A stretch of DNA of 64,000 nucleotides. Source: Botryllus schlosseri (lineage: Eukaryota). The number at the start of each line of letters is the position of its first letter. The first letter of the stretch is position 1. Made by a program: the position numbers and the translations under genes. Where the stretch lies: NCBI GenBank assembly GCA_051294905.1, contig CM119372.1, positions 15,626,001 through 15,690,000 of the forward strand, in the 5' to 3' direction. The notes under the pieces were generated by a model. That model did no database searches. It saw only the letters and a program-made list of their open reading frames with translations, and was not told where the DNA came from. Shown here piece after piece: positions 37,001-64,000 of this stretch.

Positions 37001-40000
37001 ACAATTGTTATATCTGTTCATTTGTCGGTGCACGTGGCAAGTGTGATAGGTATATGTGTACGGCCTTCCACCATCCGGCCCCCTCTTGGCATTCAGGAGT
37101 ATCTCTTGCAACTGTGAGGTGAACTTATAAATAATTGACTCGGTAGTCGTCTTTTAATTTTTCAATACTGAAATTGGCACATTGTTACGCACGTTGGTAC
37201 GTACGCTATCATTTTGCACGTTAATTATTATAGCGGCATCAAGTGTTTGGCTCGGAATCACAGATTTTGCTACAAGTTGCTCACACTATCTCTCTATAAA
37301 TCATTAAATTATAAGATTGAATGGAGTTTGGTTGCTTGTGGTAGCCTTGCAAATTCGAAATGAAATTGCTAGACGAATCGGATTGCGCGTGAGAAATGAA
37401 CATTGAACAAAGTTCACGTCAAGCCTAAGGCTATACAACCAGCAATCATTAAATTGCCGACTGAATTTAGAAAGAGTCTTACCGACGCAGCTGAGCTCTG
37501 AGATCCTTGTAAAGCCGTCACTGCAATTACAAACGAATGATCCGTATGTGTTGCTGCATGTCTCACCTGAGCTGCACGAGGTGTTATCCGCGCATTCATC
37601 AATATCTGTACACGACGTATTGTGTAATCATGCTCACGATATTCCTACGGATAATGTAAAGTTTTCACGCACCTGAGCATGTAGCTCCATCCCACGCGTA
37701 ACCTGTGTCGTTGCACCGACATGTGTACGAGCCGTTCGTATTTTCGCACAGTTCTAAATCCCCACAGAGGTGCATATCGAGTGCGCATTCATCGATATCT
37801 TTCGAAGAAACAAAATGTACAGTGTACAGTGTACAGGTACACGCATGTGTAAATATATGACATGAGGCTGCTTGTGCATTGTACATTGTACACGCATGTG
37901 TAAATATATGACATGAGGCTACTTGTACATTGTACACGCATGTGTAAATATATGACATGAGGCTACTTGTACATTGTACATTGTAATTGCTACATTTAAA
38001 ATGATGTATCACTTAAAAAAAAGCCCATATATTACAGGACTGTGGTAAATGCCAACGAAGTGGCACACTGACACCGACTATATTAGTACACAACAGCGAC
38101 AGCTACGAAGTACATCTACTCGTCCTGATTGATCAAGTCTGATTTGATGGCTTGTGCTACATTATTTATAAAGTGGCTGTATTTTGAGACGACTTCCACT
38201 ACAACTTTAATTTTAACTAATACCTCTCTACATTCCAAGATTTGCGCCGTAGCAACTACATTTCGGTGGATTTTCATCATTTTTATGAATGACATATTCT
38301 TGAAACTTGGCAATGCGCTAGGAATGGTGTGAACGTGAGGTTCACGTTCGCGTTCTGTGTGTGAACCTCAGAATTTTAGAGGTTCGCGCTCACAAACGAA
38401 CCTTGGTAGGTTCTGCACTGTGAACCTTTTTCATATATTCCAATTTTCACGTCATTATAACATCTTTGGTTGAAATGCTTTACACATCCACTTAGGTCCC
38501 ATCTATGCATGGCACTGGCAGCCTAAAATAAATCAACGCCAAATGAGCATGCAACTTGCCAATCTCAAAAATTTTACTTGCTTTGTTACAAGTTTGCTAG
38601 AAATATCCAGTTTTCCGTTTGCGAATATATAGTGACTCTCTGCTGTGAGTTCGACCACCAATCACGCATTATCAAGAGCGAAATACACTACATGTAAGTA
38701 GTCATCGAATTATGCTTATTCAATCAATCAATGAAATTGTTATAAAAAATACATCGCTGTCCAATGTAAAAATCTAGTTGGCGTACGGGATCCATAATCA
38801 TTTTATATGTTTACCGTATCATAAAAACCGAATCCGTGCGATTGGTGTAATGGTTACTATATAGGGTTACCATATTTTGGAAATATGTGAAGAGGACACT
38901 TTTTCAAAATTTTTAGACTTACAATACTGGAGTGAAATTCGAGTAAAATGGGTAATTTTTCCCGACTTTGTGGTTGGTAGGCTAAAAAAACCTTTCCGGT
39001 GCAGTTCCCAAAATAGCCGCCCGAGAGTTATTTTACCCTATATTTAACCAAAATTCCCAAAAAAGAGGACATTTGGGCGTCTTTTGAAGTCACTTTCAAA
39101 CAATTAAAAAAAGAGGACAAATCATCTTAAAAGAGGACGTATGGTAACCCTAAATTGTTAATTGGTAATATTGAAAGCAAGTATAGAAACCTGTATAACA
39201 CTCTGCTTAATATCAATCCAGCAATAGTCAGACGCCGAATACATTGTCCGGTCTGGCATAGACCGTTGATGCGTACGCTTATATTCCCTCGCATGTCCTC
39301 GTCGAAATTGTTGGTAAAAAGACGGAAGATATTAATTTTATGGGAGTGTTGCTCTAGTTCAGTGGTTCTCAACCTTTTCGACCTCGCGGCACCATTTGAA
39401 AACAGAAAATCGTTCGCGGCACACTAGCACAATGGTTTTCAACGTTTATTGGCTTACGGCACTTGCAAACTATCAAAATACTTAGCATCACCCACAGTCG
39501 TACACAGAACTACTTCTACCTTCCAACTTTTCGCAGCACTGAAGTAGGCTTTGCTCTGCTTCAAAGAAGATACTACGGTATCTTCTAAATCCGCGGTCAT
39601 GTCACAAATTCGTCCACGAATGGTATCATTTCACATGGGAATCGTTTATAATTCCTCCGCAGCTGAGTTCCCAAACATGTTTCTTTTACAATTCAAGCGC
39701 AAGCCGGAAGAATAACTCTCCGTTTCAGTGTGAGGTTTTAAATTTTTAGCTATTACGTCTGCTGCCACATAACTGGCCTGCTGCGATCTCATTGAAACTT
39801 TGGGTTGTGCTTAGATACTATTTCATAAGATTGGTGTGATGACAATAAACTCTACCCACTACTGTATTGTCGTTGTAATTAACCATTGCATCGAAGAGGC
39901 CAAGCACGATCTCCACTAACGAATACAACGGCGTAGAGGCGTACACACTATGCACTGTATGCAGGGATGCAAAATGCATTTCCACGCTGATCGTATAACA

Positions 40001-43000
40001 CGCGTGAGGAAAGTAATGCCTCAATAGTGCTACTGGCAGTCACACGCAGTTCAATCAGTTCCAACAAACCAGGATAATAACCTTAGCGGCAGGGAAATTT
40101 GTTAACTGATATAATTTGATCAACTTTACTTCTCAATTCTCAAAGTCGTCGCCTGTAATATAGCGTTGCACTTCGAGCCTACATTTTACCGGCCGTGCCG
40201 ACACTGCACACTACCTAGTAATCGCAATGTGGATGGCTACGTTTATAATTCGAATTTTTAACGTGAACATCACTTCCAAAGGAGTTCATTTTCCACTGGT
40301 GATTAGGAAGATATTGATTGCGGGCGTGACAGCAATTTTGTTTCGACAAATTTACAAACTTTACACGAGCCCGATTTATATTATTAATTGTTTGCTATAG
40401 ACTAGAATTAGTTTGCGCATAATTTCAAAATTTCGAATAAATCTCTCTCGACAGCCTTGCGAGTCGTAAATGGCACACTAGGGTGCCGCGGCGCACCGGT
40501 TGAGAACCACTGCTGTAGTTGATACAAAAATCATTGTGGCATAATGTGGTCTGAGGTGTCGCTAGGTATCGTGTACCTGTACATTAATATATCACTTCAC
40601 TGAAATGTAGGGTTGGAATTGGCAATATAACGTCATGTGACGTCATAGGTTCACGCTCGCGTTCACACACATCTTTCAGAAAGGTTCGCGTTTAGACGAA
40701 CCTGAACCTTTCAGAGGTTCACATCATTCCTACCCCTCATCACAGTAAGTCCTAAAATTCTATCCATATCCGGCGTCGTTGACCATTCTGCGAAGTCACG
40801 AAATCTAGAGTTGTCATTGTGTCGAAATTTATGACATTAATACTGATTCAGAAAAATTGGTTTCCAAAGTATAGTCGTTGGCGGTTCTCAAGTATGAGGA
40901 AGAGTTGTGAGTATAAAGTGAGTGGTTTTAGGTAGATTCGGAAGAGACGTCGAAGACTTTCGTATTGTCCAATGCCTGTGACAGCGTTCAAAATGGATGC
41001 ATTCAGGGTTGTAATGACTCGACTCAAGTCCGACTCGAGTCACGATTTTCTGATGACTCGACTTTACTCGAGTCATTTGCTCATAATACGGAAATGACTC
41101 GACTCGACTCGAGTCAATCTGTGTATTGACTCGACTTGGACTCGAGTCATCGAGCATGACTCGAACCAAGTCATATGGCTCGAGACTCAGACGGCCAAGA
41201 CCGACATTTCATTGTAATTCCGAAGAATAGTAAAGTAACCATACTATTGGGATTTCGTATATTGATACTGGTATTTGAAAATGCGACCAGAAACTGCAAA
41301 AAGTAAGGCAAATTAGTATATTATATATGCGAACCATTCGACATCACCAAACAAAGTGAGTTTACCAATACCGTAACTGGAAACTGAGAAGTCAATACAA
41401 TGACTTAGACTCGGACTCGAGTCTAAATACCATGACTCCGACTCGACCCTCTGCTTGCTGACTTGGACTCGGACTTGATTCGGTGGTGAATTGAAAATGA
41501 CTCGATTTGACTCGAGTCAAAACTATAAAGACGAGATTGACTTGTGACTGGGAGCCTTGTAACTTTGTTACAACCCTGGATGCATCTTCGCGGCTAACAC
41601 AGAATGACTATAATGGCCATCAAAATAGTTGCAGTTTTCGGAATAATAATCTGTTGCCGTCATACAGGGTCTGCATCGTACAGTTGCCACGACTATTCCG
41701 CCAACGAAAGTGATGAAAATCTATTTACATACAACTTCGTATATAAGCTAGAAATCGTGCATTGAGCTTAAGTCAGTGGTTCTTCAACTTTTTAGACCGC
41801 AACTCAAATCTGAGATTTATTGACATCTCGGGACCCAAGCCTTGCACATCAAAATAATGTACTTTTATTGTTGGTACGTTTTACGGTAATAAAATGAAAT
41901 ACAAAAGGGGCGGACAACCATATTTGGTGATACGAAGGTTCTTGAATTCTTCTCTAGTTTTTGACGATTACCCTAGAACTGTGTCAGAAGAAAATATTAG
42001 TGTTTATTATAATATGAATATATTATTCAAGTACAACTTTCTTTGTGACAGTCATAATCTGAAACATTACAAGTGCTTCGATTTCAAAATCTGTAGAAAA
42101 GAAGTGGATATAGTGTAAATTCGTATAAAGACTTAAGAAATTAGTGGAAATCGACAAAAATCCACATAACTACTTAAAATAAGTAGAAGTACGTTTTATG
42201 TAACATATGCAGGCCTTGAATTGTAGCAACGGATAAGCAAACTCGATATATTGAATCAGGGCACTATCAGTTCTGAACTGTTTGGTTTCTAGTCCGCATG
42301 ATAGGTATCTTTCTTATATCACTAGTAGCAATCCTACAACTATGCACTTTTGATTTAAGGTGAGTTGTACCTACCTGTGCATGACGACACACCATCACCG
42401 CTGTAGCCGGACAGGCATGCACAATTGTAAGATCCCACCGTATTTTGGCAAACCGCTTGATGCAGACAATTATTCGATTCGTCCGCGCATTCGTCGACAT
42501 CTGAATAATATAGTTTTCGCTGTATTAGTATCCGTGGCGTTTCGATATATATGGTCACTTGATCAGGTTACTGCATATTGCATAATGTCAAAATTCTTTA
42601 ACATGGCTCCTGAAAATATTGCACGTCCTAGTATTGTTCTACGCTTATATTGTTCGGATGGCGATATGAGGTGTATAAATAGTAGTGCAGAGCATGGACC
42701 AGAGCCGGATTTGATATCCGGCCGGACTTTTTCAATTTTGGCCGGAGCCGGATCGGAGCCGGATCAGTACTTTTTTTAAAATCCAGCTAGAATCATTATT
42801 ATTGATAAGCACGACTTTTGTAACTAAATACTCACAAACCATTCACACGCAAGTAACCGCCAAGCCAGTGCGAAAATAAACGAGTCATATTTATATATTC
42901 ACGAAACCACCGTTCCGTGTAGGGCGGAGCATGGATCGGAGCCGAATTGAATATCCGGTGGGACTTTTTAATTTTTCGCCGGAGCCGGATCAGAGAATTG

Positions 43001-46000: not shown

Positions 46001-49000
46001 TCTCACTTTCATAATTTTGACTCGAATCAAATCTATAGTCATTTTCAATTCACCACCGAGTCAAGTCCGAGTCCAAGTCAGGGAGCAGAGGGTCAAGTCC
46101 GACTCATGGTATTATGACTCGAGTCCGAGTCCATGTCATTTTGTTGACTGTTCAGTTCGCAGTTAACGTCTTGGTAAACCCACTTTTTAGAACTCTGTTT
46201 CATGATAACGAATGGTTCACATTAATAATATTCTAATTTTCCTCACTTTGAGCAGTTTTTGGTCGCATTTTCCAGTACGAGTACTAATAGACGAGATCCC
46301 AATATTGCATGTGGTTGCTTTAATATTGTTCGAAATTACAATGAAATGTCGGTCCTGGCCGTCTGAGTCTTGAGTCATATGACTTGGTTCAAATCATGTA
46401 CACTGACTCGAATCAAGTCGAGTCATCCGAATACCGTGACTCGAGTAAAGTCATGACTCGAGTCATTACAACCCGGCCTTTCGGAGTCACATGTTAGCGT
46501 AAAACAATTATATGTGTTGGACTGTTGGTACGTCGTGGCGCGCTAATGGCTGGCGCCGAAATGCCTATTTCTATCAATCATGCGTATTTCTCGGAGAAGG
46601 GAACCTAATATGCAAGGCATTCGGTGACACTAAATCGCACAAAGCACGAAAAGAAATTGAAAAATGTTGGAAAAAGTTTTTAAAAAAACACGCTATGATT
46701 TATGTTCATTTTGCAAAATAATTTTGGGCCTTTTTCAAGCTCGGCCCCTCTCCAATTGGGCGGTTTGGAGTGCCCCAGTTACGGCCCTGCACAAAATGAA
46801 TGAATTGAAAACGAATGATCGCGCAAACCGCACTGTTTAGCAATGAGCTCGTATCTGTTCTGTACTTATCACCTTCAACATTGCATCTTGAAATTAAGGT
46901 ATAAAATAGTAATATACCTGGCGGACCGGCAGGAATGTCGTCGCGGACCGGTGCCGGTCCGCGGACCGGCGGTTGAGAACCACTGCCCTAGGGTGTACCA
47001 GAATTTGCAAAAGGTGTACCACTCGGATGGGGTGTACACTGTACAGGGGTGTACCAGATCCAAATTACAATGAGCCGATGGCTAGCTATCACAAAGGCAG
47101 GTTTATGGGTCATTACAGGTTAACGCACAGGTTATTGAGCAATATCGTACGATGTTATCGCAAGTGTATTACTGTACACCGCTTGATTGTGATGTCATAA
47201 GCAAATATTTCTCCTATTCATTTATCCGTCGGCAATAGACCAATGGTTCCGTTTGGTGTTGGAAAGTATGCAGTTAACAGACATGTGTTCAGCTAGTCAT
47301 TTGCCTTTTAATTAGGCTTACCATATTTTGGAAATCTAAAATTAGGACACTTTTTCAGAAATTTGAGACTTGCAAAACCGGAGAAGAATTCTTAAAAATC
47401 GGTGAATTTTTCCCACTTTGTAATTGGTAGACTAAAAAAAAGGTCAACTTTCCGCTGAGAGCTCAAAATACCGTTTTCCTCTCCACGTTGCTGCGTGGTT
47501 GACTAAAACAAAAAAAAAAGGTTTTCGCTCAGAGCTCAAATCATCTTTTTTCACTCCGAAATACCCGCCGGAGCGTCCCTTCTGTGCTAATTTACGGCAT
47601 ATCAATCGCATTTTGCTCTAAATGTGACCTAAATTTTAAAAAAAGAGGGCAAAATCTCAAAATAGAGGACAAAAGGGCGTCCTCCAACGACACTTTCAAA
47701 AAAGTTAAAAAAGAGGACAAATCCTCTTAAAAGAGGACGTATGGTAACCCTACTTTTATTGATTTTTGAGGAAACCGTCGCGATAGCTCAGACTTGATGA
47801 ATCGGTACTTCCTACCCGATGTTAATAAATACCGCAACGCACATAAATGAAGTGACGTAGCCAGCCAGGGTCGAAACAGCTTCCATGTTGAAATCGAAAC
47901 CCTTTCGTTTTAAAATGCCGATTTTAAGTCCAGTATTTCACCATACGTTTGCAATTTAGTATTTTGTTATTAGTGATGCAAATTAGCGACAATAGACTGT
48001 GTATAGCGGCATACGATCTGAGGTTACTGACATCTCTTGCAGCCCGTGTGCTACTATCGACTGTGTGTGGTGTGGGGCAGGCCTGATACGCAGTAGGCTG
48101 GTGCGTCTGCTATCATCGCTGATCTGAATTACCGCTTCTGCCGCACTAGCTTTACCTACTCTCTCCCCGATACTGTTACATTTAGGTTGATTATCGTTCG
48201 TATGTCATGCTGTTTTTTGGCTGACACGAAATAAATTCCAATTGGCGTGGCGGACGGCCTAACTATCTGCGAATAGTCTCTGTGACCAAATACTATTTTA
48301 TTCAAATCAAAATTTTTGACGGCAATAACTCCGCTGCTACTGGTTGGACTTGAACCAAATTTGGTGAGCATCGTTTCTATAGACACCCTAACACTTTCAT
48401 GAAGAAAATTTTTCAAATTTTCTGTTATTTATTTTTATATTATAAATAGAACTTTCTTCTGTAGCAATGCGGCTACTGGTTGGAATTGAACAAAATTTGG
48501 TGTGTAGGCTTCAGTTAGGTAACCTAACTACTTTATTAAGTAGCCAGTACGATTTGAGAAAAAAAGTCATTTTTGAAGACCCCTAATGAAGGGGTGTACG
48601 AGTTTTGAGCAAACGTTAAAAGGCCGTACCACGTCGAAAAAGGTTGAAGAGCACTGCATTAGCTCATTACAGATCATGCCTGAATAATCAGCACACCAGA
48701 GACATAAGCATACAACGATTCCGTAGTTTCCGCCGTAATTACGAGCGTTTAATAAATCTCAAGTAGTGCGAATCCGTAACCCGATGATTGTTCTACGAAA
48801 CATAAAGTTCAATATTACCGTTGCAAGCGTACGAATCCTTACTTCTGTCTTCGACGAAGTTGCCTTCAGTACACGCACACTTGAATGCGTACGTGAACCC
48901 GTCGCTTGTTGAACACACTGTGTTCGATCCACAGGCGTCAGCATCTGGTGTTGGGCACGCTTCGGTCGCGTTGAAGGCTGCAAAAACAAATTACACGTCC

Positions 49001-49991
49001 AACTTTATCTATGCATATTATTTTCTATTGAATTATTTCACGATGCCATCGAAAACAGAGTGGAATGAGCATCGCAATGAGCTTTATGACGTATGCACCG
49101 AGTGAGGATCAAAGAACTATCAGGGACTGACGGGAAACTCATATTGAGGGTCTTGTGATGTACATTTGCCGGATTGCTCATGATCGATATCGTATGTGTA
49201 ACACCATGAAATACTATCGATAGAGATATCGTATTCCCGTGTGCGTCCTACGTTCGACTTTGACATATCAACTTCGCACTCATTGCTGGTGGATCTAGTA
49301 CAAGGGCGGACAACTTCTCCAGTCGGCGGGCCGGATATGGGAAAATTAAGTACTTGGCGGGCCGGATTACAATCCAGGTTTTTTGATAAGTATACATTAC
49401 TGTTATCGATCAAATTTCAACAAGAACTGCATTAAATATAGAGTATACCATGGCCACTGAATGTATTTTCGTACCTATTTGTAGTATCAATAGAAAATCT
49501 AGGATTATGAATGCGCTCCATTCTATGTCACTCGAGCAAAGTTGAAAAAGTGGGTTGAACCGGATGGAACTCTAAACTAAAGAGTGGACACAATGACGTG
49601 GACTCGGACTTGACTCGTTTGTGAATTGAAAATGACTCGACTTGAATCGAGTTAAGAGTGAGATTGACTTGTAACTCGGAACCCTGTGACTTGATTATAA
49701 CCCTGCAAATACATACAATGTACATACTTTGAAAACTTAGACTGGCTGAGAGCGACACCAGAGCATTAAGTGCATCCACCGTCTCCCTTCCACGGAGCAG
49801 ACGACCTGAAAAATGCAAACTGTCAGCTTTGCATATTACGAAACAAAGACAGCAGCCATGCGTATACTTCCTTCATTCGCAAATAGCGCGTAGTATTCGC
49901 ATGTCGGACAGTCTTGGGCAACGATCCTTGTTACCTCTGCTGATAGCAAAAATCCTACTGCTACAATGTAAAAGTCCAGTTTTCCGAACAT
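28011..49991 (-). CDS. Secreted multi-EGF (calcium-binding EGF) protein, ~420 aa, 9 exons
   Basis: Minus-strand exons 49991-49868, 49805-49728, 48977-48819, 42500-42375, 37798-37673, 37605-37483, 32040-31918, 31839-31720, 28294-28011. All introns are GT-AG and phase 1, 1263 nt total. Signal peptide [25 protein letters not shown], one atypical EGF, four D[IV]DEC...C-x-N-T-x-G-S-[YF]-x-C-x-C modules, one plain EGF, a Thr/Pro stretch and tail ...[15 protein letters not shown]. The EGF exons are secure; the terminal exons rest on splice signals and phase. Confidence 0.82.
28365..29696. mobile_element. hAT element with nested hAT MITE 28480-29004
   Basis: Outer TIR cagtggttctcaacc / ggttgagaacccctg with TSD atctagag; inner TSD atctaata; both TSDs perfect. 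Confidence 0.92.
30150..31290. mobile_element. Cluster of truncated hAT elements
   Basis: Right end ...aagcactg at 30209, atctagag, left end cagtggttctc at 30218, an 8167-family body to ~31103, and a gactcgag fragment at ~31154-31260. Confidence 0.7.
32070..32930 (-). mobile_element. 3' end of a 5'-truncated non-LTR retrotransposon (I-group type, RNase H + C-terminal zinc knuckle)
   Basis: ORF 32321-32869: SLSVLKTI...[21 protein letters not shown] (non-LTR RNase H motif) and [19 protein letters not shown], followed by an A/TAA-rich end. Confidence 0.85.
33685..34903. mobile_element. Non-autonomous hAT element
   Basis: TIR caggggttctca / tgagaacccctg; perfect TSD ttttaggc. Confidence 0.9.
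34918..36566 (-). mobile_element. Decayed Chapaev3-like (CMC/Transib-related) DNA transposon
   Basis: Ends aaccgtgtaaca / tgttacattgtg flanked by tta. Minus-strand remnants [88 protein letters not shown]. The superfamily name comes from my recall of these motifs. Confidence 0.75.
35091..35289. mobile_element. piggyBac-type MITE nested in the Chapaev3-like element
   Basis: ttaa|ccctat...ataggg|ttaa termini. Confidence 0.7.
37817..37985. repeat. Intronic minisatellite, ~42-48-bp unit, about 3 copies
   Basis: Repeated tgtacacgcatgtgtaaatatatgacatgaggctacttgtacat. Confidence 0.9.
38319..40732. mobile_element. gtgaac-family hAT element with two nested elements (38862-39152; 39360-40512)
   Basis: TIR taggaatggtgtgaac / gttcacatcattccta (TSD not preserved). 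The inner 39360-40512 has TSD ctctagtt/ctgtagtt and a minus-strand Buster/ZBED5-like remnant [34 protein letters not shown]. Confidence 0.85.
41004..41578. mobile_element. hAT-like MITE with gactcgagtc arrays (family B; also 45959-46476, 56703-57275, fragments ~31154 and ~49590-49705)
   Basis: TIR cagggttgtaa / ttacaaccctg; TSD gatgcatt/gatgcatc. Confidence 0.9.
42688..43040. repeat. Two direct copies of a ccggagccggat-rich transposon end
   Basis: gagcatgga..gagccg.att..atatccgg..ggacttttt..atttt..gccggagccggatc at ~42691 and ~42928. Confidence 0.6.
43075..44257 (-). mobile_element. tRNA-derived SINE with (ACA)n tail, interrupted by family A element 43329-44233
   Basis: Rejoining across the perfect TSD attaccac gives gtggcgagatagcgtagtggtaatatccacagctgc...gggttcgagtcc; a (gtt)n run at ~43075-43095 is the tail. 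Confidence 0.85.
45209..48656. mobile_element. hAT element with three-level nesting (45246-46985 containing 45959-46476; also 47313-47752)
   Basis: Outer TIR cagtgctcttcaacc / ggttgaagagcactg with TSD cattagct; inner TSDs ccctaggg and cctttcgg. Confidence 0.9.
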
Positions 49992-50849
49992 CGCTGATGT
50001 TTGATGGGAATATTACCAAGATACACTAATTCCTGCAATAGATATGTTGGTTCGTATATCTGCTTGCGCTTTTCAAATTCGATCGTTGGAAAAATCGGTG
50101 TACGGAGAATATCCTAAAAAATCCAGGGCCCTCAACGTGTTTGGCCCGTGGATTAATGTAATTTGCAGTCTCAAGCACTATACAAATAAAAAATTAACTT
50201 ATTGAAACTTAATAATAGTGATATTTGGAACAAACAGGTGTTTGTAATTCCGTCCACCTTATTCACCGATATCAATAGTAGAAGTATGGATAATCGAGAT
50301 CAGTAGTTGGCCAAGATGTCTTCTTGTTAGCAAGGAGCCTATGTAATTCTGACAAATATTGTGCTTGCATCAGGCCTTGTCCATTTCTGCGAAGGCTTTG
50401 GTTTAAGGCCTCCATTGGACAGTGGCGGCTCGTCCTATAGGGCAACTGGGGCATTGCCCCACCTAAAATTCTGTTCAATAACAGTTCTTTACCATTTAGA
50501 GACGCACAGCAATCTATATATACCGAAATCACAGCGAAAATGGTATTCTTCTTGTCCTTTCGCTTGTAAATGCCCATATATAGCGAAGTCTCTGCGAAAA
50601 TCGAATTCTCTTCCGTGTTTTCGCTTTGCGAATGCCTAGCCGGGGCATGCCCCGGTAGCGCTCATAACAAGCTTTCACTGTCTATTCTCTCAAAGCCGCG
50701 CACAATAAAGAAACAGTGATTTACTCTCTCCTATTCATAAAATTACCGAGCAACCGGGGCAACATAGCCTAGTCGCCCTCAAGGTGTGATGTAACAATCG
50801 TATCTATATCTGAACTCGGTAACCGTCATATGCGTGCCGTTTAGTCGAC

Positions 50850-51860
50850 CTTTGCTGGTATAGGTCGATTTTGATGGTGTTTCACACCATGATAATTCTT
50901 GAAACTTGGTATGTCATGTCGTGATGGTGGCATTTAACACTGTCCCAAGTTACAGGGTTTCTACTTAAAGTTTAGGGTAGTAATTCCGTTTCCGAAGTTG
51001 AGTGTGTGCTGACCATCATGTATCGCAAACAGATTTTACTCAAAAGCCGGTATTGGTATACATTGATTTTGACGATGTTCCATACCGAGATCGGTCGCAT
51101 GACATTTGGTACGGTAAGTCTTAATGTTAGTATCGAACGCTGTATACCAAGTTTCAAGTTTGTCACTGTACTGTGTTTGTGGTAATTTCGTTTCCTAAGT
51201 CGAGTGAGAGCTGACTCGTCATTTATCGCAAACATATTTTACGTAAAGCCGGTATTGGTCTCCATTGATTTTAACGATGCTCCTTACCTAGATCCGTCAT
51301 GAGCTTTTGCATGGTATGTCTTGATTTTAGTATCGAACGCTGTACCTGGTCTCAAGGTTGGCACTCAATGATTAGGGCAGCAATTTCGTTATCAAGGTCG
51401 AGTATGGTAGAGATGTGCGCTGATCTGACACTTAGCCCACCTAACGCATTGCGGATTTCACGCAAAAGCCGGTGTATCTGTGTTAACGCTAACTGTGTTC
51501 CATACTGAGATAGGTGATGAGATGATGATATCATGAAACAGTTTACTAACATCCTCGGTTTGCATTCAAATATTTACTTTTATTTTATATTCTCCAATGT
51601 CAATTTCACCGTGAAATTGTGGCCTTCAGGCCATTTGCTTACAATTACAACCCCTGTCAAGCGCGATAGCTGTTTCGTTCTCGATGGCGGCTAAGAGCTG
51701 ATCGCTTGATCAGCCTATTCCTCAATAAATTTTACGCAAAATTCGGTGTTGGTCTGTTCGTATTAATTTTGACAGTGTACCATACCGAAAACGGTCATGA
51801 GGCTATTTCTCGATGATTTCATGTAACAGTGTACCAAGTTTTCGGCTTTCATCCACGTAT
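50850..51860. repeat. Degenerate ~200-220-bp tandem repeat
   Basis: aaagccggt recurs at ~51043, 51245 and 51465 with shared ccatac.gaga, tagtatcgaacgctgta and accaagttt blocks. Confidence 0.65.
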
Positions 51861-51919
51861 TTATTCGGTAATATATTTTCCCAAGGCGATTTTGCAGCAG
51901 ACATATAGACACTATAGAG

Positions 51920-53141
51920 CAGGGGTTCTCAACCCGCGGCCCGCGGGCCGCATGCGGCCCGCAGACGATTGTTTTGCGGCCCGCGACATCTTTCATTATG
52001 AACGCAATTACTACTGGTACAGTATTGTTATGGAAGACCGATGTGCCATATTTGTCGAAGAACAGTTGTTGTAACGAAGCGTAAAAGCTTAATGATTCCA
52101 GCTCCTTCTGGAGTTAAACATATCGCCCGATGTTAAAGAAAACGTTGTTATAGTTGGGTGTCAAGCCCAGCAATCCACATTTCGAGACATTGTTAAAGTT
52201 GCCGACGACGTTATAGACGCATTGTTCAAAATTGCTTGGAATATTGCTAAAACCATGAATAGGCTAGAGAAGATGTGACTTCAATAAAACTTTAAGGTAT
52301 ACTGTGCGTAAATTCGCTGTTTCCGGAATTTAACAGCAAGACCAACATCGCCTGACCAATTTCGAAGCTATATACAGTTGTCTGGATCAACCGTCACCAG
52401 AAGATTAACAGCAATGTCAGTCGATTTTTATCGCATGTTCTTGAACACGTTCCCACGTAGACTACTTTAGTCTGACATTGGACGAATCCACCTACTTGAC
52501 ACACATTGCAGAGCTAATTATTCAGGTGCATTTTATTACACTGGACATATTTCCGGAGGAAATGCTGACTAGGCAAAGTTGGGAAGGGGACCAGTGAAAA
52601 ATATCAACTTGACAAAGCTGACTTTTGTAATTATTGATGCAGCGCTCCGGCCATGTAAGAAAATGAGAAGGGCTGATTGGTTTGCTCAGAAATTAGCCAG
52701 AGCTCTTGACTTCTTTTCATATCACTGAGAGCTCAAAGTGATAATGGCCTCTGTAACGAAGAAGTAGCCGTAATTTTATATTTGCTCGCTCACGCATTGA
52801 AACAGAGAGTTCGGTTTTCTGGTGGAAGGGCTTGGAGGTGCATACACCAATTTGGCAACGAAAGCAATGCATGTTCCATGAAGTGGCTTACTTGCACCGC
52901 TAGAAGAAAGATATTCTCACACACACAAGAAAAACAGCAACTGCAAACTTACGAACGCTGTCCATTAATGCAACAGAATGCATAGAAATGTACGGAATAC
53001 CCGTATAAGACTAGTAAATAGGCTAGACTACCCTAAAATTATTAGTAGCCCATAAAATACATGGTGATAATGTGCTGCGGCCCACAGAGTCTTTTGCTGT
53101 TAAAATGCGGCCCGTTATACGAGAGAAGTTGAGAACCCCTG
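51920..53141 (+). mobile_element. hAT (Charlie/Buster-type) deletion derivative; partial sister copy ~56140-56535
   Basis: TIR caggggttctcaac / gttgagaacccctg; perfect TSD ctatagag; remnant FKIAWNIAK..IQLSGSTVTRRLTAMS. Confidence 0.9.
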
Positions 53142-53764
53142 CTATAGAGTATAGACCGTAAGCCGTATGTGTCGTGTGACAGTCTCCAGCCTCAAGGCCA
53201 AAATCTCCTATGCTGTACCGGGACCGAATTTCCGAGGCCGCTATCCGTAGTTCTTCAGAATTATGTTTTGGATTCAATATGACATGTCCAATCTATGAGA
53301 TAACAATTGCGTATGTGTCCGAACTCGTTGACCTTTCCAGTTAGGCTTACGCAATCTCTCGAGTTATAGTCATTTCCATTGCTGCAGATAATTAGTCAGG
53401 TATAGTGCGAACATGAACCGTGTCGAATCTTTGTTCCGTACGCCGTTTACGCAGTTACCACACTTCAAGTCACAGCTCACCGGCAGACCTCTCGCGGCAC
53501 ATACGTTAAAATCACTGTTGTCGGGAAGTTCGTGTTACCGTAGTCCGTACCACCAAGTTACTTGTTTACGTTGGAAAACGCCATTGTGACGTCATCTTGA
53601 TAAAAAGTCGCTTGCAGCCCTTGCCCCACCACCCGATATTGTCACGAGCCGCCACTGCCATTGGATATAGTTTATATTTTTCACCTATTCAACTGGGTTT
53701 ATTACTCGGCGGACTCAAGACGCAGCTAACTACACTTCAAATGGGCCACATAATACCAATGGGA

Positions 53765-53915
53765 AATTGCTACCTAAGTGTTTGAGGTTTATCCAGACTC
53801 CTCCTGGCCATCTCATCGATGGAAACGGTGTCTTATAAAAACCTATAGAAGTGGGCCGTGGAAGCTTCGGAGGAATAAAATTAAAGAAAATGGGCCTGGT
53901 GTAAATGACCATATC
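53765..53915 (+). mobile_element. 5'-truncated copy of the tRNA-derived SINE
   Basis: ctacctaagtgtttgaggtttatc...gtgtcttataaaa...ggcctggtgtaaatgaccat matches the SINE body. Confidence 0.75.
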
Positions 53916-54011
53916 AGTATTCGACAAACTCCATGAATACCAGAAATAACGACCAAAACCATTGGGCAATGGTATGGAAAATATACCAAGCCACCGTACC
54001 GAGGTATCGAC

Positions 54012-57000
54012 CAGTAATGGGGTAATTAGTTTGTCAATGTAAGCGATTGCGATTACTATTACTTCTGAATCACGCGATTACGAGTATGATTACAGCAAAA
54101 TATCGAAGTAAGTAGTCGATTGTGATTACGACTACGTTGAAAAGTGATCACGATTACTCACGATTACATTTATTGTCCATTTTAGAGCTTGACCCTTGAT
54201 CACATGTTGGAAGACAATAATACGACTGCATTGTCAAGCACTCGTATAACAAAAAAATTTTCATTTTAAACGTGACATCATTTGCCGTACTTTAGAGCTG
54301 ACGATTTCTCGCCCTGGGCAATTTTATCATTTTAGCTAAAACCCACGCTAACATGGTGTATCAACGGTTCGCTACAGCGGAAGATTTATATGTTGAGTAA
54401 AGAATTGCGAAATGAAGATTGGTGGAAGTAGGGCCATATCAGAAAAAAAAATTGAGTGAACATAAACTTGTGCCATAATTAATAATGCTTATCGTATAGT
54501 TGAGCAATGAACACTGAACAGCCTATTGCCTATAATCAGGGTTGTCATCGACATTCACCTAAAAATAAGGACAGTCGAAAAGTTAGATTAGTATTAAAAG
54601 CGTTATTGTACATACGTGATATTAATACGAGCCGTGGCATATCGTATTCCATACTTGATATTATAGTAATGAGCCAGCACACACACCACGTCAAGGTTTG
54701 AGCCGGGCGCTGCTGGACTAGGTCATAACTATTATTGCATGGGTGCAAGGATTGACTACATCAAAACTAAGTAGCCTACTTCTACCACATGCAGAGACTG
54801 GATGATTATCTTTTCTAACAAATGCATTAGCTGATTGACCATAGAGGGGGGCGTCGACCAGGGGGTCCTGGGCAACCGCCCACCTGGCCGACCCCAACAG
54901 CCACCACTGGCTTCACTACTTTTTAACTCAAGTGTCGACTGCAGTGCGCCCTTATTCAGTACGCAATAAAAGCTGCCTTTCCCACAGCTTATTCTGCTGT
55001 AGACTAACAGTAGAAACCTGGTAATGGTGTTTACTGCTAAAATGACGTCCGCTGCGATAGATTGGTACATCCGAAACTGCTATACCACTCACTGTCCTAG
55101 CTATGTTACCACTACGAAGTCAAATCCTACGGTGCGTACGCCACGGAAGTTCCTTTCATTTATGATGTCATAAAATCTCGACGCAAAAGCATAATTTTAG
55201 AATATTATGCAACACAGAAACCAGAGGGAGATGATCGAAGTTCTGTAGTTGTTGAAAATAAGACAAAAGAAGGACGCAATTAGAAAATAAGGACATTTCT
55301 TAGAAATAAGGACAGTTGAGTTTTATAAGACGTGGCCCTTCAAAGTAAGGATAAATCTTAGAAATAAGGACGGTATGGCAACCCTGCCTATAATTCATTT
55401 GTTGCGGAACTTGCGAATGGTCAGACTTGCACATGCACACACTACTGGATTTTGAAAATGAGTAACTAGAAGTAGAGCAAAAACTAAAACTAACGACCTT
55501 TAAAACTTCGCAACTAACTAACTAACGCACAACTACCTAATAACTGATAATACGATTCACGGAATTTCGAATCAGCCAAGAAGTAATCGATTGGATATAC
55601 AATCGCTATTTCAAAAGGGCAGGCTTTCAAGTTTGAAATGGAAGGGGTTTTGAGTTCGAACCCCTTCCTACGCCACTGTCAGTATAATTGAAGAGCTTCT
55701 TGGAGGTACAGACCTTCAATATGCAATTGAATAGTATATTCATATTGAAATGAACCCGAATATTTTCGGCTGACACTCGTCAGGGGTAATCGTCAGCAGC
55801 TAGTAGAGAATTGGGAAGAACATTGTATATCAACAATCGTATCACAAAATATGACGTAACCAGCATGAAATTTCAAATGAGTGATCGTTCAATGTATTAT
55901 TTTTAGGTGGTACACGAACTCCTTTTGTTGACAGAGTTTTGGTTGGTGTATTTTGATAAAAGTCGACTCTAAGGCACACAAATGAAAGTGTGAACGGCCC
56001 CTCCCAACGACGCGAAATCTGTCGTCTCGATAATTATTCTCACAAATCGGATTATCTAACAAATGTTTGCCGATGGCAGAATTATCGGAATATCTGTTAG
56101 ATAATCCGATTTGTGCGAATAATTATCGAGACGACAGTTCACACTGTAACGACAAAGTTACCGTGATTTTATACTTGCTCGCTCACGCATTGGAACGGAG
56201 TGTTCCGTTCTCTGGTGGAAGGATTGGGGGAGGGGGTGCATCTGTCGACTTGGCATTACATGCTATGTACGCCCCATGAAGGGATTTACTTGCGCTGTTG
56301 GAAGATACATATTATCACGAAAAAAACAACAACTGATAACTTACGAACACTGTCTGGTATTTCTTTAGAATGCATAAAAATGTACTAAATGCCCGTATAC
56401 GACTGTACTTGTACAGTGTACATTAGCCCAAATTTAATAATCGCACACAGATACATGGTAATAATGTTCTGCGGCCCGCAGCGTCTTTTACTGTTCACAC
56501 GCGGCCCGATATACATGAGAAGCTGAGAACGCCTGGTCTAGTGTTTATTTATAACCTGACACTGGGCATTGCGGTGGTACTTTCAATCATACTGCATGCT
56601 GAAATCTTTATTTACTCCCTATATGGTCAGTATGGATAATTCGATACGCAGTGACGAGCGCAAAGGTAGTACTTGTGAATGATAACAGCGGAGTTTGAAA
56701 ACCAGGGTTGTAATGACTCGAGTCACGTTTTTCAGATGACTCGACTTGACTCGAGTCATTTTCTCAAAATACGAAAATGACTCGACTCGACTCGAGTCAA
56801 TTTGAGTATTGACTCGACTTGGACTCGAGTCATTGTGCATGACTCGAACCAAGTCAAATGACTCGAGACTCAGACGGCCAAGACCGACGTTTCATTATAA
56901 TTTCGAGGAATAGTACAGTAATCACACTATGGGGATTTCGTCTATTGGTACTGGTACTTGAAAACACGTCCAGAAACTGCTAAAAATGACGAAAATTAGT

Positions 57001-57500
57001 ATATTATAAATGCGAACCATTCGATATCACCAAACGGAGTTATAAAACGTGGATTTAACAAGCCTTTAACTGTAAACTGGGAAGTCAACATAATGACTTG
57101 GACTTGACTCGAGTCATAATACCATGACTCGGACTCGAGCCTCTGCTCGGTGACTTGGACTCGGACTTGACTCGGTGGTGAATTGAAAATGACTTGACTC
57201 GACTTGACTCGAGTCAAAACTATAAAACTGAGATTGACTTGTGACTCGGAGCCTTGTGACTTGGTTACAACCCTGTTGAAAACCCAACGTTTCTGCTATA
57301 TATAACCTGATATAAAATCGCACTATTTCTTGTTCTCGAATGTTCAGTCTATGTCTTAGTCCTTGTGCAAGTAAAAAGTAACCATTCGTTTACGACGAAT
57401 TCGATTAGATATGAAATAATCGATCGCTATTACGATAACTTGAAAATGCTGTCATCAAGGGAATCGATTGCGATTACTAATCGCGATCACCCCACGTCTG
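54012..57500. mobile_element. Composite hAT-like element (gattac motif family) with nested elements 54537-55386 and 56703-57275
   Basis: Ends cagtaatggggt / accccacgtctg, perfect TSD gtatcgac, cgattac subterminal motifs; inner TSDs cctataat and ttgaaaac are perfect. Confidence 0.82.
56019..56137. repeat. 119-bp fold-back inverted repeat
   Basis: ctgtcgtctcgataattattctcacaaatcggattatctaaca pairs with tgttagataatccgatttgtgcgaataattatcgagacgacag (43 bp, one mismatch). Confidence 0.92.
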
Positions 57501-58919
57501 GTATCGACCTTCTGATCCATGATTATTCCCGTTGACCCGCGAATAATTTGTTGCATTGCTGCTTTCGTGGTGGTATGCATAGTGACGCAACAGACTCGTC
57601 GATCGGTTGATTCTCAAATCGCGACAGGTATACCGAAGTTCTTGTGTCTGATGACATGAGAATCGACTGATGGTATAAGTATACGGAATTATAGAGCAAG
57701 ATAGATAACATGATTAGTTTTAGTCAACAACCGTTAGCTTCAAAATCCCTGGATTCCAAGATAATCGGAAGAAAGTTGCTCTTTCCGATTTATCAGCACA
57801 TTAATACAGTTTAGTTGATAATCTCGTAGACTCGCCTAACACCCGCCACGGTTTTAACGAGTCCGCGAACGTGGGTGACCACCACTGCCTTAAAAATTAA
57901 ACCCCAAATCCTTACTATATTTTTTCGTATAATGTCATAATTTGCAGTGTTCTACTGAAAGCAGTTATTTAAAATCATCCTTCATCTCTCACTGGTCAGC
58001 CTATATTTGGGAGCCATCGAGAAAAGCCAACCGTCGTTATCGATATTCCTTCAGGCATTGGTGTTTGTCAGTGTTATAGATATCTTTAAGAATCAGCATA
58101 GCGTATTACCACGCCCTCATTTTCATTGACTAAATTAAGGGAATTGATAAGACTACTTTAGCACTGCCCGGATTATTTTCATGTACATCGATGCATATCA
58201 AGTCGGAAAATAATGACACGGAAATTATCCTTTCCTGTATCGTAATATCCCGTATAGCTTGTTTACATTAGTTTTCACCGTTCATTCCAGACCATTCTCC
58301 CATCGTCAGACACTTCTTTGGACCTGATTTTTACCACGTCCAGTCAGCCATTTGATTTCACCGATGCATATCAGACGTCATATCGACAACAACGCATGCT
58401 GAGTATTTGGGATTGACGCTGACATACAGACAAGGTGGGTGTCTGATTGAAAGACGATACTGCGATTCGATTCGACATCTTCCTATCTCTTCATTGTATC
58501 GCAATTTTGTGGTGCTTTGAAATGAAGAAAATAACAATAAAACTAACCAATACCGGAGAATTTGGTGATGAAAAATGAGTTTGCCGGTATTGCGCATGTT
58601 GGTATACAATCCAACTTATCAATTAGTTTTTCATCACTCAAATATTACAAATGGCGGTTACAAGATAAACCAAATATTCAACAGACTAAGGGGTAACACA
58701 ATGGTCAGTTAACATGCTAGCCCAGCTAACGTCTCAAAATTGAGTTCTAATTGGGTACATATAGAGGTAAGCAACCTGGACTAAGTGTATGATCGATTGT
58801 TTAAGGACAACTGTGTTAAGAATATAGAATGGAGAATATATTGCTACAATTTTGAATAAACGACCACTTTAGCGACAGTGGCTGGGCTGCATATGGAAAA
58901 TAATCTTCTCTCCTATAGG

Positions 58920-60301
58920 CAGGGTTGCCATACCGTCCTTATTTCTAAGATTTGTCCTTATTTTGAAGTACCACGTCTTAGAAAACTCAACTGTCCTTAT
59001 TTCTAAGAAATGTCCTTATTTTCGACTTGCGTCCTTATTTTGTCTTATTTTCAACCACTACAGAACTTTTATCGTTTTCCTCTGGTATTTGTGTTACATA
59101 ATATTCATAAATTATGCTTTTGCGTCGATATTCTATGACATCATAAAGGAAAGGAACTCTCGTGACGTTCACACCATAAAATTTGACTTCTAAGTGGTGA
59201 GATAGCTCGGACAGTTCCCGTGCGTGGTTTCGTCTGTACCAAGCTACCATGGCGGACGTCATTTTAGCAGTAAACAGCAGTACTAGGTTCCTGCTGTTTG
59301 GTCTACAGCAGAATAAGCTCAAGCTGTGGGGAAGGCAGCATTTATTGCGTAGTGAAAAAAGGAGCAGTGCAGTCGACACATTGGTTAAAAAGTAGTAAAG
59401 CTATTATTCATTGATAAATTTTTCTAAATTATATTGCACTTGCGCATATAGTTTTAGCTAATAATAGGGCTAAATCTATTTAGTTAAAATGAGCAGGCGT
59501 AAAAACGTTTTTCGTGACGATTATGAGAGAGAATTCACAGGTATCTAACGAAGTTTGAAGGGCGAGTGTTTCGCACATAGCAATTTCTGCAATTGTGACA
59601 TTAACCTGTAGGCCATAGGAAAGACCGCTATTTCTACTCACATTGATACCCCAAAACACAAGAAGTGTGTCGTAATGATTAATTGGAGCCAGTCGATGAA
59701 TAAATTTTCCACAAGTTGATCAGCACCAACGACCACAGACGACATGGCAGCTGCTGCAGATGGTACCTGGGTATTCCATACCGTCAAACACCAGCAATCA
59801 CTCCTCACCAACGATTGCACATCGCAATTGTTCAAAGCAATATTCCCCGATTCCAACATCGCAAATATGTTTTATTCGGCCAGGACCAAGACTACAAGCA
59901 TTGTTACTCGAGTTCTTGCTCCATACCCTCAAAAACGATTTTTCTAAACATGGTGTGTGGCCTTTTTCCATCTTGGTTGACGCCTCTAATCACAACGAGG
60001 TGGAGAAGTTTGGTTTATCACCCTATGGGCGGGGTCAAGTTCAACGTTTTTTTGGGAAGGGGGGCTGACGAAGTGCTGTTTCGGCCCTGAGTAAAGGTAA
60101 ATCTAGACCTGAGCTCTCGTGAGATCCACGAAGCACTTTCTAATAACAAGGAGTTGCTGGAGCAGACTGTTTCTGGCGAAAAGTGTGGAATGTAATATGC
60201 CACGGCTTGTATAAATACAAAGTATGTTCAAAAACGTTTTTTCACGCTAATCTAATTTTTAGACTGTCCTTATTTTTGGGTCTATATCGATGGCAACCCT
60301 G
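58920..60301 (+). mobile_element. Internally deleted hAT (Blackjack-like) transposon, sister of 14132-15529
   Basis: TIR cagggttgccat / atggcaaccctg; perfect TSD cctatagg; same transposase remnant (AAAADGTWVFHTVKH...SARTKTTSIV...PFSILVDASNHNEV). Confidence 0.92.
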
Positions 60302-60851
60302 CCTATAGGTATATCACTTGCAACCGGTTGGCAATTATTCGTAGCGATGTCCATTAACGGACACCCGTTACTCTTCGTTCCACGTAGATTGTGTACAGCA
60401 ATGCGTCTAGTTGGAGCTAAGTGGTAATCCCTTTGATTAACATTACATCGTCACATTAGTCCGAAAATAGGCAGTGCCTCGAAAATTGTAAATCCCGAAG
60501 TCCCGGGATAACAAAGCGACAAACTTATACCCTAACAGGTTAAAGTCCAACAAGACAATAGGGAAATGGTATATTATTGCATTAACTATCTCACGGTATC
60601 ATTGGGCATTGTAAATGGCACCGATGATGTGCGGTTTCCAAGTCAGGAACCAGTTGTATGGAATATACGGTGTAACACAGGAATGATGTAGAAAACTGAC
60701 ATTCTCCCAGTCAAGTCCAAACCAAAGATGGACGGAATTTGAGCGATTCAGACCTGAATTAGTACGTTACTACTATTTTTCTTGCTTCACGTTTCTGATG
60801 ATTAGAGGTTATCCGGTAGCTGGAAGGGTCCGTGGACTGGACATACTGGAG

Positions 60852-61123
60852 ATATGAGCATGCGACATTATAACATGCGATACCTCGGCATGTGACAATT
60901 GGTCATGCAGCACATGAGCATGTGGGATAAATTACGGGTTAATGATGGGTTTAGGGTTGAGTTAGGGTAAGACTTGGGGTTAGGATTTATATAGAGGTCA
61001 ATTTCAGGGTTATGTTTCGGGTTAGGGTTAATTTTAGGGTTATAAAGTAACAAGCATAGAAGTGACGGAAGATAAAGTGTCCCATGCTCCGCTGTCGTTT
61101 TCCATTTTGTCGCATGCTCATAT
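60852..61123. mobile_element. Small inverted-repeat element with internal TTAGGG-like array
   Basis: atatgagcatgcgaca / tgtcgcatgctcatat inverted pair enclosing degenerate ttaggg units (~60935-61042). Confidence 0.65.
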
Positions 61124-61628
61124 GTCGGGCAACCAAATGGAAGTAGCGTATTTACGAATGCATGTTATTAATAGGTTCATGCGCAAGACCTCTTACCGCT
61201 ACAACGACCAACAAAAGACCAGCCAAACCCGAACGTTACGCGTCATGACAGGCTCGTTTGTATGTTGACACCACTCCTTTAGTTAATTTTAGATCATATT
61301 TAAATGGTACACATGATGATGTATCTAGACAGGTGCGACTATAGGCTGGCGGCTCTACAGAATTCACTGCTATCATAAGCAAAAAGTTCCGTATTGCAAC
61401 CGTTACGAAATATAAGATACCGGTATAGTTTTTAGTTTGCGAAGTGGTGGAATTGTCTATAGATAATGTTAGAAGACATTAAAATTTGACAATGGAAATA
61501 TTGCCGCAATTCCTAAAGTGGATGAATTGTTGGGCTAGTCAATTAATCTGAATCAATGAATAACAAACACTTGATTTCATTGAGTAAACTAATGGAGATT
61601 TCTTTCGAATATATAGGCTGCTAGTAAA

Positions 61629-61953
61629 ATGAGTCGATTTATATATTTGTATTGTTTTGTCCTCTTACTGATTCTGGTGCAGGAAAGGTCATGCCAAACG
61701 TTCTGTACTAACGCCGACTGCCTATATTATGTACTTTTTGAAGATGAAACGTCAAGTAAGATCAAAGTTAATGGATGTATGAAAGATAATTAGCTATTGA
61801 AACTTTAGCCTTCCAGTTTCCAGTTCTTCACTGCAACGCTTGCTCGTTACCAGTATTAATTCATTGCTTTATCCACAGAGATCGTAAGAGGTTACCCCAC
61901 CGTCGCAGATGTTGAAGAAGGTATTAAATCTGGTAAAAGCCTGAATTTTAACG
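61629..61953 (+). CDS. First two exons of a secreted protein paralogous to the minus-strand EGF gene
   Basis: Exons 61629-61755 (MSRFIYLYCFVLLLILVQERSCQTFCTNADCLYYVLFEDETS, donor gtaaga) and 61879-61953 (KIVRGYPTVADVEEGIKSGKSLNFN, donor gtaaga), phase 1. They align without gaps to exons 1-2 of the minus-strand gene from the second Cys onward. The rest presumably lies beyond the window. Confidence 0.7.
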
Positions 61954-62544
61954 GTAAGATTAAAATTCTAGAATACAGGACTATGAAAAACTTGATAGTT
62001 CACCCCATAATTTCTCCTCTCAATACAGACTGAACAGCGCTTAGTAGCCTACATTACGGATGAGATTATCTATAGTTATGACTTGAAACATAAGAGTGAG
62101 ATGCCAATTATTGTTACAAATTATTGCTGTGAAACAATCATTATGTTGCAATGATATATCGATACGAAAATCTATGTGAAAACCCGAACAACGTTTTCAG
62201 TAGTCACTCTACGGAATTAGAAGATATCTTTCCAATCCCAGAATGAATCGTAAATCATCATTTATGTATTTTCCTCATGTTTCAAATACTGAAATTACTC
62301 TTACTACATTGTCCGTGACACCATAGGGAAGTGGTTTTAAAACGCAGTGCCGCACTAAGAATGAGATGATATGGATTGCCGTCGACATGTAGCATAGCAT
62401 CTAGGGAGCTGGCGACTAATAACGAGTCATCACTAAAAACAACTCCAAGTTGTTATGACACTGTGATATGACAGTTTGAGCGAAGTTGATTACCGATTTT
62501 TACTCAACATGACCACAATATGATATGACTGGATTGATGACCAT

Positions 62545-63720: not shown

Positions 63721-64000
63721 AGCAATAGCATGGTGCAAAAGGTCTCACTTTCCGAGACATAGGCTAACCCTCCTCCACATACATACACATACATTCACCA
63801 GCTCGCACTCAGGATACTTAAAGTACTAGGGTACCTCGATCTATTTATTCCTTTCAAAGGATGTCAAAGAGGTTGATAACCACTGCTGTAGAGATTTACA
63901 TTTATAAAAACCATGGTTCTTCTGCAAGCTGCGCCCTAATCGAATAAAGCAGAACAACATTTCGATGTCTCATATACTTTTAGCGATTGTCGGAAGCAAA

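Follow-up and report, generated by a model that had tools for sequence, protein, structure and literature searches.

The gene pair and its shared head

What is the protein segment with which two divergent genes of Botryllus schlosseri both begin, how old is its duplication, and what kind of protein does it cap? The two genes lie in a 64,000-nucleotide (nt) stretch (contig CM119372.1 of assembly GCA_051294905.1, positions 15,626,001 to 15,690,000; here called the window) of intron-rich animal DNA, with about 40% GC and with repeats that recur inside it covering about 29% of its length. The pair is real: these are old paralogous gene starts with a conserved N-terminal module, here called the head, and an ordinary array of EGF modules follows the head in the minus-strand gene. 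Our preferred reading, to which we give a probability of about 0.5, is that the head is an orphan binding module carried on a secreted EGF protein of a matrix or coat.

The minus-gene ATG (49991) and the plus-gene ATG (61629) are separated by 11,638 nt, in agreement with an earlier examination of the letters alone (the sequence-only reading), which had described two divergent genes about 11.6 kb apart with a common two-exon start. Each start encodes a signal peptide and a head of 42–45 amino acids (aa), split over two exons. In the minus gene, exon 1 (49868..49991, minus strand) contains the ATG, the signal peptide (approximately aa 1–25), and the first 16 aa of the head with its two Cys residues, and ends in phase 1; exon 2 (49728..49805, minus strand; phase 1-1) encodes the second half of the head, aa 42–67. 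In the plus gene, the coding part of exon 1 (61629..61755, plus strand) holds the ATG, the signal peptide, and the first half of the head, and exon 2 (61879..61953, plus strand) holds the second half and ends in a phase-1 donor. All modelled splice sites of minus exons 1–3 are GT-AG and keep the reading frame. Splicing the minus strand at 49868/49805 and 49728/48977 and the plus strand at 61755/61879 reproduced the translations given earlier, and both contain the motif claimed for them, C-x-YY-x-LF-x4-S-[RK]-hh-RG-xx-TV-x11-SL-x-F.

Homology of the heads and age of the duplication

From the second Cys onward, the two heads align over 37 residues without a gap, 14 of the 37 being identical. Their Smith–Waterman score is 66, and shuffled sequences gave a mean of 18.5 (standard deviation 3.8) and a maximum of 48, with none of 10,000 shuffles reaching 66; the likeness is thus significant by this check. 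Because the junctions had been chosen by the sequence-only reading, a look-elsewhere control was made, in which all stop-free GT-AG two-exon joins spanning an intron of 45–300 nt anywhere in the window were scored against each head after removal of the query's own region (25,486 and 25,730 joins). For each head, the top-scoring join was the other gene at exactly the predicted junction, scoring 66, and the runners-up reached 41 and 40. Among two-exon joins with introns of this length, the window yielded no third copy of the head.

The gene structures agree as well. Intron 2 follows coding nt 202 in both genes and intron 1 follows coding nt 124 in the minus gene and 127 in the plus gene, all in phase 1, so that the second introns coincide and the first lie one codon apart, as had been claimed. 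Identity between the heads by codon position is 18, 20, and 8 of 37 for the first, second, and third positions, respectively, and the same codon is used for only 4 of the 14 identical residues: third positions are saturated and selection has acted at the protein level. Outside the head, no likeness beyond chance was seen between the genes in intron 1, in the 300 nt upstream, or at the start of intron 2 (24 to 215 of 300 DNA shuffles reached the score), nor between the signal peptides (4560 of 5000 shuffles). Because third codon positions are saturated and signals, introns, and flanks are unrelated, the pattern is that of an old duplication of which only the head would have been held by selection on the protein. 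The proposal of an old inverted duplication is therefore supported by the shuffle test, the window-wide join control, and the codon-position pattern together.

Between and around the two genes lie a palindromic element (56019-56137) and two pairs of inverted repeats of about 84% identity, 54910-55392 with 58914-59401 and 45961-46425 with 56810-57273.

EGF array of the minus gene

The minus-gene model comprises nine exons encoding 420 aa (45.8 kDa) without an internal stop. Exons 3–8, all on the minus strand, are each phase 1-1 and each encode six Cys residues. Exon 3 (48819..48977) has EGF-like but atypical Cys spacing and no Pfam EGF match. The calcium-binding EGF modules are encoded by exon 4 (42375..42500; EGF_CA, 46.9 bits), exon 5 (37673..37798; 34.5 bits), exon 6 (37483..37605; 40 bits), and exon 7 (31918..32040; 44.5 bits), so that four of the six six-Cys exons pass the Pfam EGF_CA cut-off of 27 bits, at 34.5–46.9 bits. 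Exon 8 (31720..31839) is EGF-like and of the non-calcium type (EGF_3, E 7.5e-5), its 23.3 bits lying below the cut-off of 28.5. The calcium and hydroxylation consensus occurs four times in the model. The introns reach 4–6 kb; no convincing extra exon was found in the four that were scanned, and none of the 44 minus-strand open reading frames (ORFs) in 19200-31700 matches a Pfam domain that would follow the EGF array. A Pfam scan of 83 ORFs around the minus-gene 3′ end and beyond plus exon 2 gave no match at E ≤ 0.01.

By hydropathy, both products begin with a hydrophobic N-terminus, and the 19-residue maximum in the minus model is 1.75 within the signal and 1.06 after it, with no transmembrane stretch; both products are thus probably secreted, as the sequence-only reading had suggested. 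Its further suggestion that both mature proteins start with Gln is borne out in part: under the −3/−1 residue rule for signal cleavage, such a start fits the minus gene (Ile and Ala at −3 and −1) and fits the plus gene less well (Arg at −3). Likewise, the assignment of both genes to an EGF family stands for the minus gene, on the four EGF_CA exons; for the plus gene, with no third exon found in 61954-64000, it is a possibility.

The intron that separates exons 6 and 7 contains two other elements: the remnant of an RNase H-like retroelement at 32321-32875 (minus strand; PF00075, E 6e-4), and, at 35423-35915 (minus strand), two ORFs that by eye resemble a decayed transposase and have no Pfam match.

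Last exon of the minus gene

The probable last exon (28011..28294, minus strand) begins at the best remaining acceptor, 28294, and an ATTAAA lies at 27929. Its phase-1 frame encodes 30 aa at 70% Ser/Thr/Pro, a Lys-Arg pair, and a basic 62-aa tail (isoelectric point 10.8) that ends in three Arg, Gly, three Tyr, and the stop. An overlapping acidic frame is also open over this exon, to 27955. The two frames run to about 94 and 113 codons, and a tandem repeat of 15-nt units (28224-28292) is crossed by both. We trained a codon model on 784 codons from the window, with no mucin-like stretch among them; it called 17 of 17 held-out pieces correctly and prefers the acidic frame. No good phase-1 acceptor leads into the acidic frame (scores of −2.2 or lower versus 3.9), and a test on synonymous codons could not call the frames (9 of 17 in calibration). 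The phase-1 frame, and with it the C-terminus of the minus model, is therefore one of two candidates. A full HMMER search with the tail returned two matches, a tandem-repeat ORF and an ankyrin-like repeat protein, which were dropped as repeat-inflated, and the single-sequence fold of the tail, one long helix with a predicted template modelling score (pTM) of 0.34, is uninformative.

What the head might be

The head was searched as single exons (half-modules), and the queries, at 20–46 residues, are of low sensitivity. None of the four half-modules matches Pfam at E ≤ 1 or NCBIfam at E ≤ 10, and among PDB sequences they give nothing below E 1.1; these half-module blanks agree with the statement that the head is not assignable to a known domain. 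The search of a large protein collection was word-seeded, needing three exact 5-residue words, covered the exon-1 half of the head and minus exon 3, with the exon-2 half outside it, and was made in a collection that evidently lacks these very proteins. The exon-1 alignment gave 58 candidates of 75–2000 aa, none at E ≤ 1, and no candidate of 22–74 aa; minus exon 3 gave two candidates of 92–2000 aa, none at E ≤ 10. In the ESM Atlas, plus exon 1 had no usable match, a weak blank, as the neighbouring aminopeptidase ORF was blank too. The term lineage-specific, used for the protein family in the sequence-only reading, is thus a weak suggestion that rests on blank single-exon searches needing three exact 5-residue words. 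No published description of the head appears in the titles and abstract openings of the literature searched, a set to which the primary papers on the ascidian EGF proteins APAP-1, Hemps, and Ci-meta1, whose sequences may affect its novelty, do not belong.

Head residues 49–60 are amphipathic at 100 degrees in both copies (moments 1.22 and 1.54), and a single-sequence model of plus exon 2 plus seven intron-encoded residues places a helix there at low confidence (mean predicted local distance difference test score 64, pTM 0.27). A helix of this kind, midway along exon 2, would fit a small strand-strand-helix-strand unit closed by one disulfide. The head also ends at a phase-1 intron, as each EGF exon does, as expected of a discrete module.

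It is unlikely, though well within consideration, that the head belongs to a known family from which it has diverged, and was missed since only halves were searched. The shortness of the queries would allow this, and at E 3.2 an exon-2 profile picked up a six-residue loop in thioredoxin-domain protein 5; the absence of any family match among the four half-modules speaks against it. The leads that we presumed, namely the strand-strand-helix-strand fold of the RNase H1 hybrid-binding domain and the ribosomal L9 N-domain, the trypsin-zymogen activation junction, and thioredoxin motifs, found no support where testable. For the first (PF01693), the head halves gave no match, and the spliced heads, compared with E. 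coli L9 alone, scored at shuffle level (1434 and 230 of 2000 shuffles reached the score). In trypsin-family zymogens, the activation junction places a Cys some 12 residues ahead of a basic residue, which two aliphatics and a Gly follow; the head precedes an EGF-like exon, and there was no trypsin match in Pfam or PDB sequences. A thioredoxin fold is a domain of about 100 residues with its CxxC far upstream of the cis-Pro loop; the head has 42–45 aa, and the six-residue match is the only one. These last two leads were rejected, and no protease or thioredoxin domain lies downstream of the head.

The Arg-Gly pair, invariant in both copies and with a basic residue before the adjoining hydrophobics, also allows the segment to be seen as a propeptide, cut at or near the conserved hydrophobic-hydrophobic-Arg/Gly site and serving in folding, storage, or timing rather than as a binding head. 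Such processing occurs in ascidians, where the EGF parts of Tuphoxin may be processed away, according to the available part of its description (PMC9395347). We consider this rather improbable: conservation runs 20 residues past the site, the hydrophobic pattern continues on both sides of it, and the minus head has no dibasic or furin-type site.

Expression and extent of the plus gene

Of 24 sequencing runs found, none is recorded as RNA; 14 are RNA by guess, with small shares. Four of the 24 were aligned to 42330-62300, where repeats dominate; the listing gives 15 of the 446 joints and 24 of the 33,825 pieces. In one run, X4 (RNA by guess), a 917-nt contig (record 23) matches 61616-61752 with no differences at a depth of 11.3, demonstrating that plus exon 1 was transcribed in that run. 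The match ends 3 nt before the predicted donor, and two of those three letters also fit the intron end. The mean X4 depth in the bin 61644-62300 is 3.21, and the values expected are 3.22 for exons 1 and 2 only, 1.93 for exon 1 alone, and 11.3 for read-through; assuming that no other contig contributes to the bin, this indirectly supports splicing at both plus-gene introns.

These data also bear on whether the likeness of the heads could be due to chance, with one or both gene starts mis-modelled. The sequences are short, the intron-1 donor of the minus gene is weak (−2.5 with a generic matrix), and no predicted junction is among the 15 of 446 joints listed. Opposed to this are the shuffle, join-control, and codon-position results, the agreement of intron phases between the genes, and the RNA-type contig whose match on plus exon 1 stops just short of the predicted donor; we regard chance as an extremely improbable explanation.

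The X4 contig starts at 61616, on an acceptor-like site (61600..61616, plus strand) consisting of a pyrimidine run with an AG at 61615-61616, just upstream of the plus ATG, whose role would be that of a splice acceptor. Acceptor-like AG sites lie right upstream of both ATGs (49992-50010, minus strand; 61600-61628, plus strand), and both starts may have a trans-spliced leader or a non-coding exon further upstream, which would alter the true promoter spacing. The contig begins one base away from where an AG-terminated leader would place it, so that a trans-spliced leader there is a possible lead; about half of Ciona genes are trans-spliced, according to the part of the source available (PMC1488885). 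Elsewhere between the genes, all four runs skip 1.24 kb at 51911-53150 (46 reads in X23), which probably reflects a polymorphic insertion or a junction of repeats, not an intron.

Beyond plus exon 2, no credible exon was found in 61954-64000 (about 2 kb), where none of the 12 plus-strand ORFs matches Pfam. This leaves a real if minority chance that only the 5′ cassette is common to the two genes, duplicated or shuffled, and that the plus gene continues into other domains or encodes a small protein made of the head alone. In that case, the head would be mobile rather than diagnostic of a single EGF family; this is compatible with the binding-head reading. The absence of both a third exon and an EGF-like ORF in this interval favours it, as do the phase-1 end of the head, which suits shuffling, and the 917 nt of the X4 contig, which leave about 700 nt past exon 2. 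Nevertheless, minus-gene introns reach 4–6 kb, so an EGF exon could lie past 64000, and the contig may stop at an assembly branch.

A model for the two proteins

If the head is a binding module on a secreted EGF protein, the steps may be as follows. After an old local inverted duplication, both genes would have retained a 5′ cassette of signal peptide and 42–45-aa head. The head would fold by itself, as a two-Cys disulfide knuckle with two short hydrophobic strands round a polar turn, the amphipathic helix, and a closing strand. The minus gene would carry it at the tip of six EGF modules, the four calcium-binding ones stiffening these into a rod, followed by a Thr-rich linker, probably O-glycosylated, and then by the cationic tail, with no membrane anchor. 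The tail may grip a polyanionic matrix or be cross-linked through Tyr, and the rod would hold the head out towards its partner, either protein or glycan. Between the paralogues, the specificities of the heads would be related but diverged.

Several points weigh against this model. Conservation of the head is known from two sequences, the single-exon searches having found no homologue, and the head was searched and modelled by single exons. The plus gene is readable only to exon 2 within the window. The predicted junctions 49868/49805, 49728/48977, and 61755/61879 are not among the listed joints, and the listed pieces of the four runs gave no RNA support for the minus gene, where their bins are mixed with repeats. 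Finally, the codon model favours the acidic frame of the last exon by about 20 bits (+8.4 versus −12.2 bits); if that frame is used, there would be no Thr-rich linker and no cationic tail.

The C-terminus and tunichromes

The end of the phase-1 frame raises a further alternative, that the minus-gene product doubles as the precursor of a tunichrome-like catechol peptide. Cut at the three Arg, it would release a C-terminal Gly-Tyr-Tyr-Tyr, which would putatively be hydroxylated, oxidatively decarboxylated, and used as a cross-linker or metal binder. The frame does end with a free C-terminal run of Tyr behind a putative processing site, and of 3,898 stop-ended frames in the window, two, this one included, finish in three Tyr. 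In the available part of a 2010 review, tunichromes An and Pm contain three hydroxylated Tyr units and Mm-1 contains Gly and two, and a free C-terminal carboxyl is said to promote decarboxylation (PMC3039461). The likeness to An-1, Pm-1, and Mm-1, as that part describes them, is in the unmodified residue order of the predicted minus C-terminus behind a basic site; a tetrapeptide of this order is absent from the Table 1 rows among those listed there (PMC3039461).

The codon model, however, favours the acidic frame of the last exon; the three Tyr come from a short triplet repeat, which encodes Leu in that frame; the motif was noticed post hoc; the tail is without a homologue; and one tetrapeptide per 46-kDa precursor would be a poor yield. 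We therefore hold a tunichrome-like role to be highly doubtful. No tunichrome precursor gene is named in the titles and abstract openings of the literature searched, most subscription papers lying outside it, and the same review, in the part available, calls the enzymology of these compounds practically untouched (PMC3039461). That the head is a new domain with no tunichrome link is a view we lean towards, at somewhat better than even odds; the combination of such a small extracellular domain with a minus gene that also encodes the precursor of a tunichrome-type peptide seems very improbable.

Comparison with known EGF proteins

Thrombomodulin, CD93, and nephronectin/EGFL6 combine a head, an EGF rod, and a Ser/Thr-rich stalk. 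By general architecture, the minus-gene product resembles them in having a putative recognition head, five or six EGF modules, and a predicted Thr/Pro-rich linker, but it lacks a C-type lectin head, a transmembrane helix, and a MAM domain, and its head is about one-third the size of a lectin domain. Membership in the thrombomodulin/CD93 group was rejected on the first two of these absences.

Secreted EGF-array proteins are known in ascidians, namely Hemps and Ci-meta1 (PMC3760835) and APAP-1 (PMC12817120). As far as the available parts of these sources describe them, Ci-meta1 of Ciona has 6 EGF and 13 calcium-binding EGF repeats, and Hemps of Herdmania has 4 EGF repeats and 3 novel Cys-rich repeats (PMC3760835). 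Both resemble the minus gene in having a signal peptide and an array of EGF and calcium-binding EGF modules without a membrane anchor, and Hemps also in having segments of no known family (PMC3760835). Compared by description only, the minus gene differs in having 2 + 4 EGF repeats and, with respect to Hemps, one N-terminal two-Cys head instead of three Cys-rich repeats. APAP-1, the papilla adhesive protein 1 of Ciona robusta, is described in the accessible text as a multi-EGF larval adhesive protein; it is secreted as the minus product is predicted to be, and its tagged recombinant form is of 46.5 kDa, compared by description with 45.8 kDa for the model (PMC12817120). Exon searches of the protein collection gave no named homologue. 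Tuphoxin has two calcium-binding EGFs ahead of a tyrosinase (PMC9395347), and fuhc-sec has a signal and two EGFs (PMC3691228); as partially described there, neither architecture agrees with that of the minus gene.

Neighbouring genes

At lower coordinates of the window, on the plus strand, lie the 3′ exons of an Xaa-Pro aminopeptidase-type gene (4294-4981; PF00557 and PF16188) and a multi-exon nucleotide pyrophosphatase/phosphodiesterase gene (12396-19159; PF01663), each with a hydrophobic C-terminal end. A 116-aa open frame at 27027-27377 (plus strand), with a good acceptor at 27197, the top exon score of its region (14.8), and no Pfam match, is possibly an unrecognised exon convergent with the minus gene.

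Implications

This locus adds modestly to current knowledge, because ascidians were already known to have secreted EGF arrays that carry unassigned segments. Should the unlikely tunichrome reading of the tail be true, it would weigh more than a new domain, in that it would link a named gene to the chemistry of tunichromes. A head that proves to be a new domain would be one more uncatalogued extracellular recognition module, small enough for expression and structure solution, and the pair would add two genes whose 5′ exons escape stop-to-stop ORF lists.

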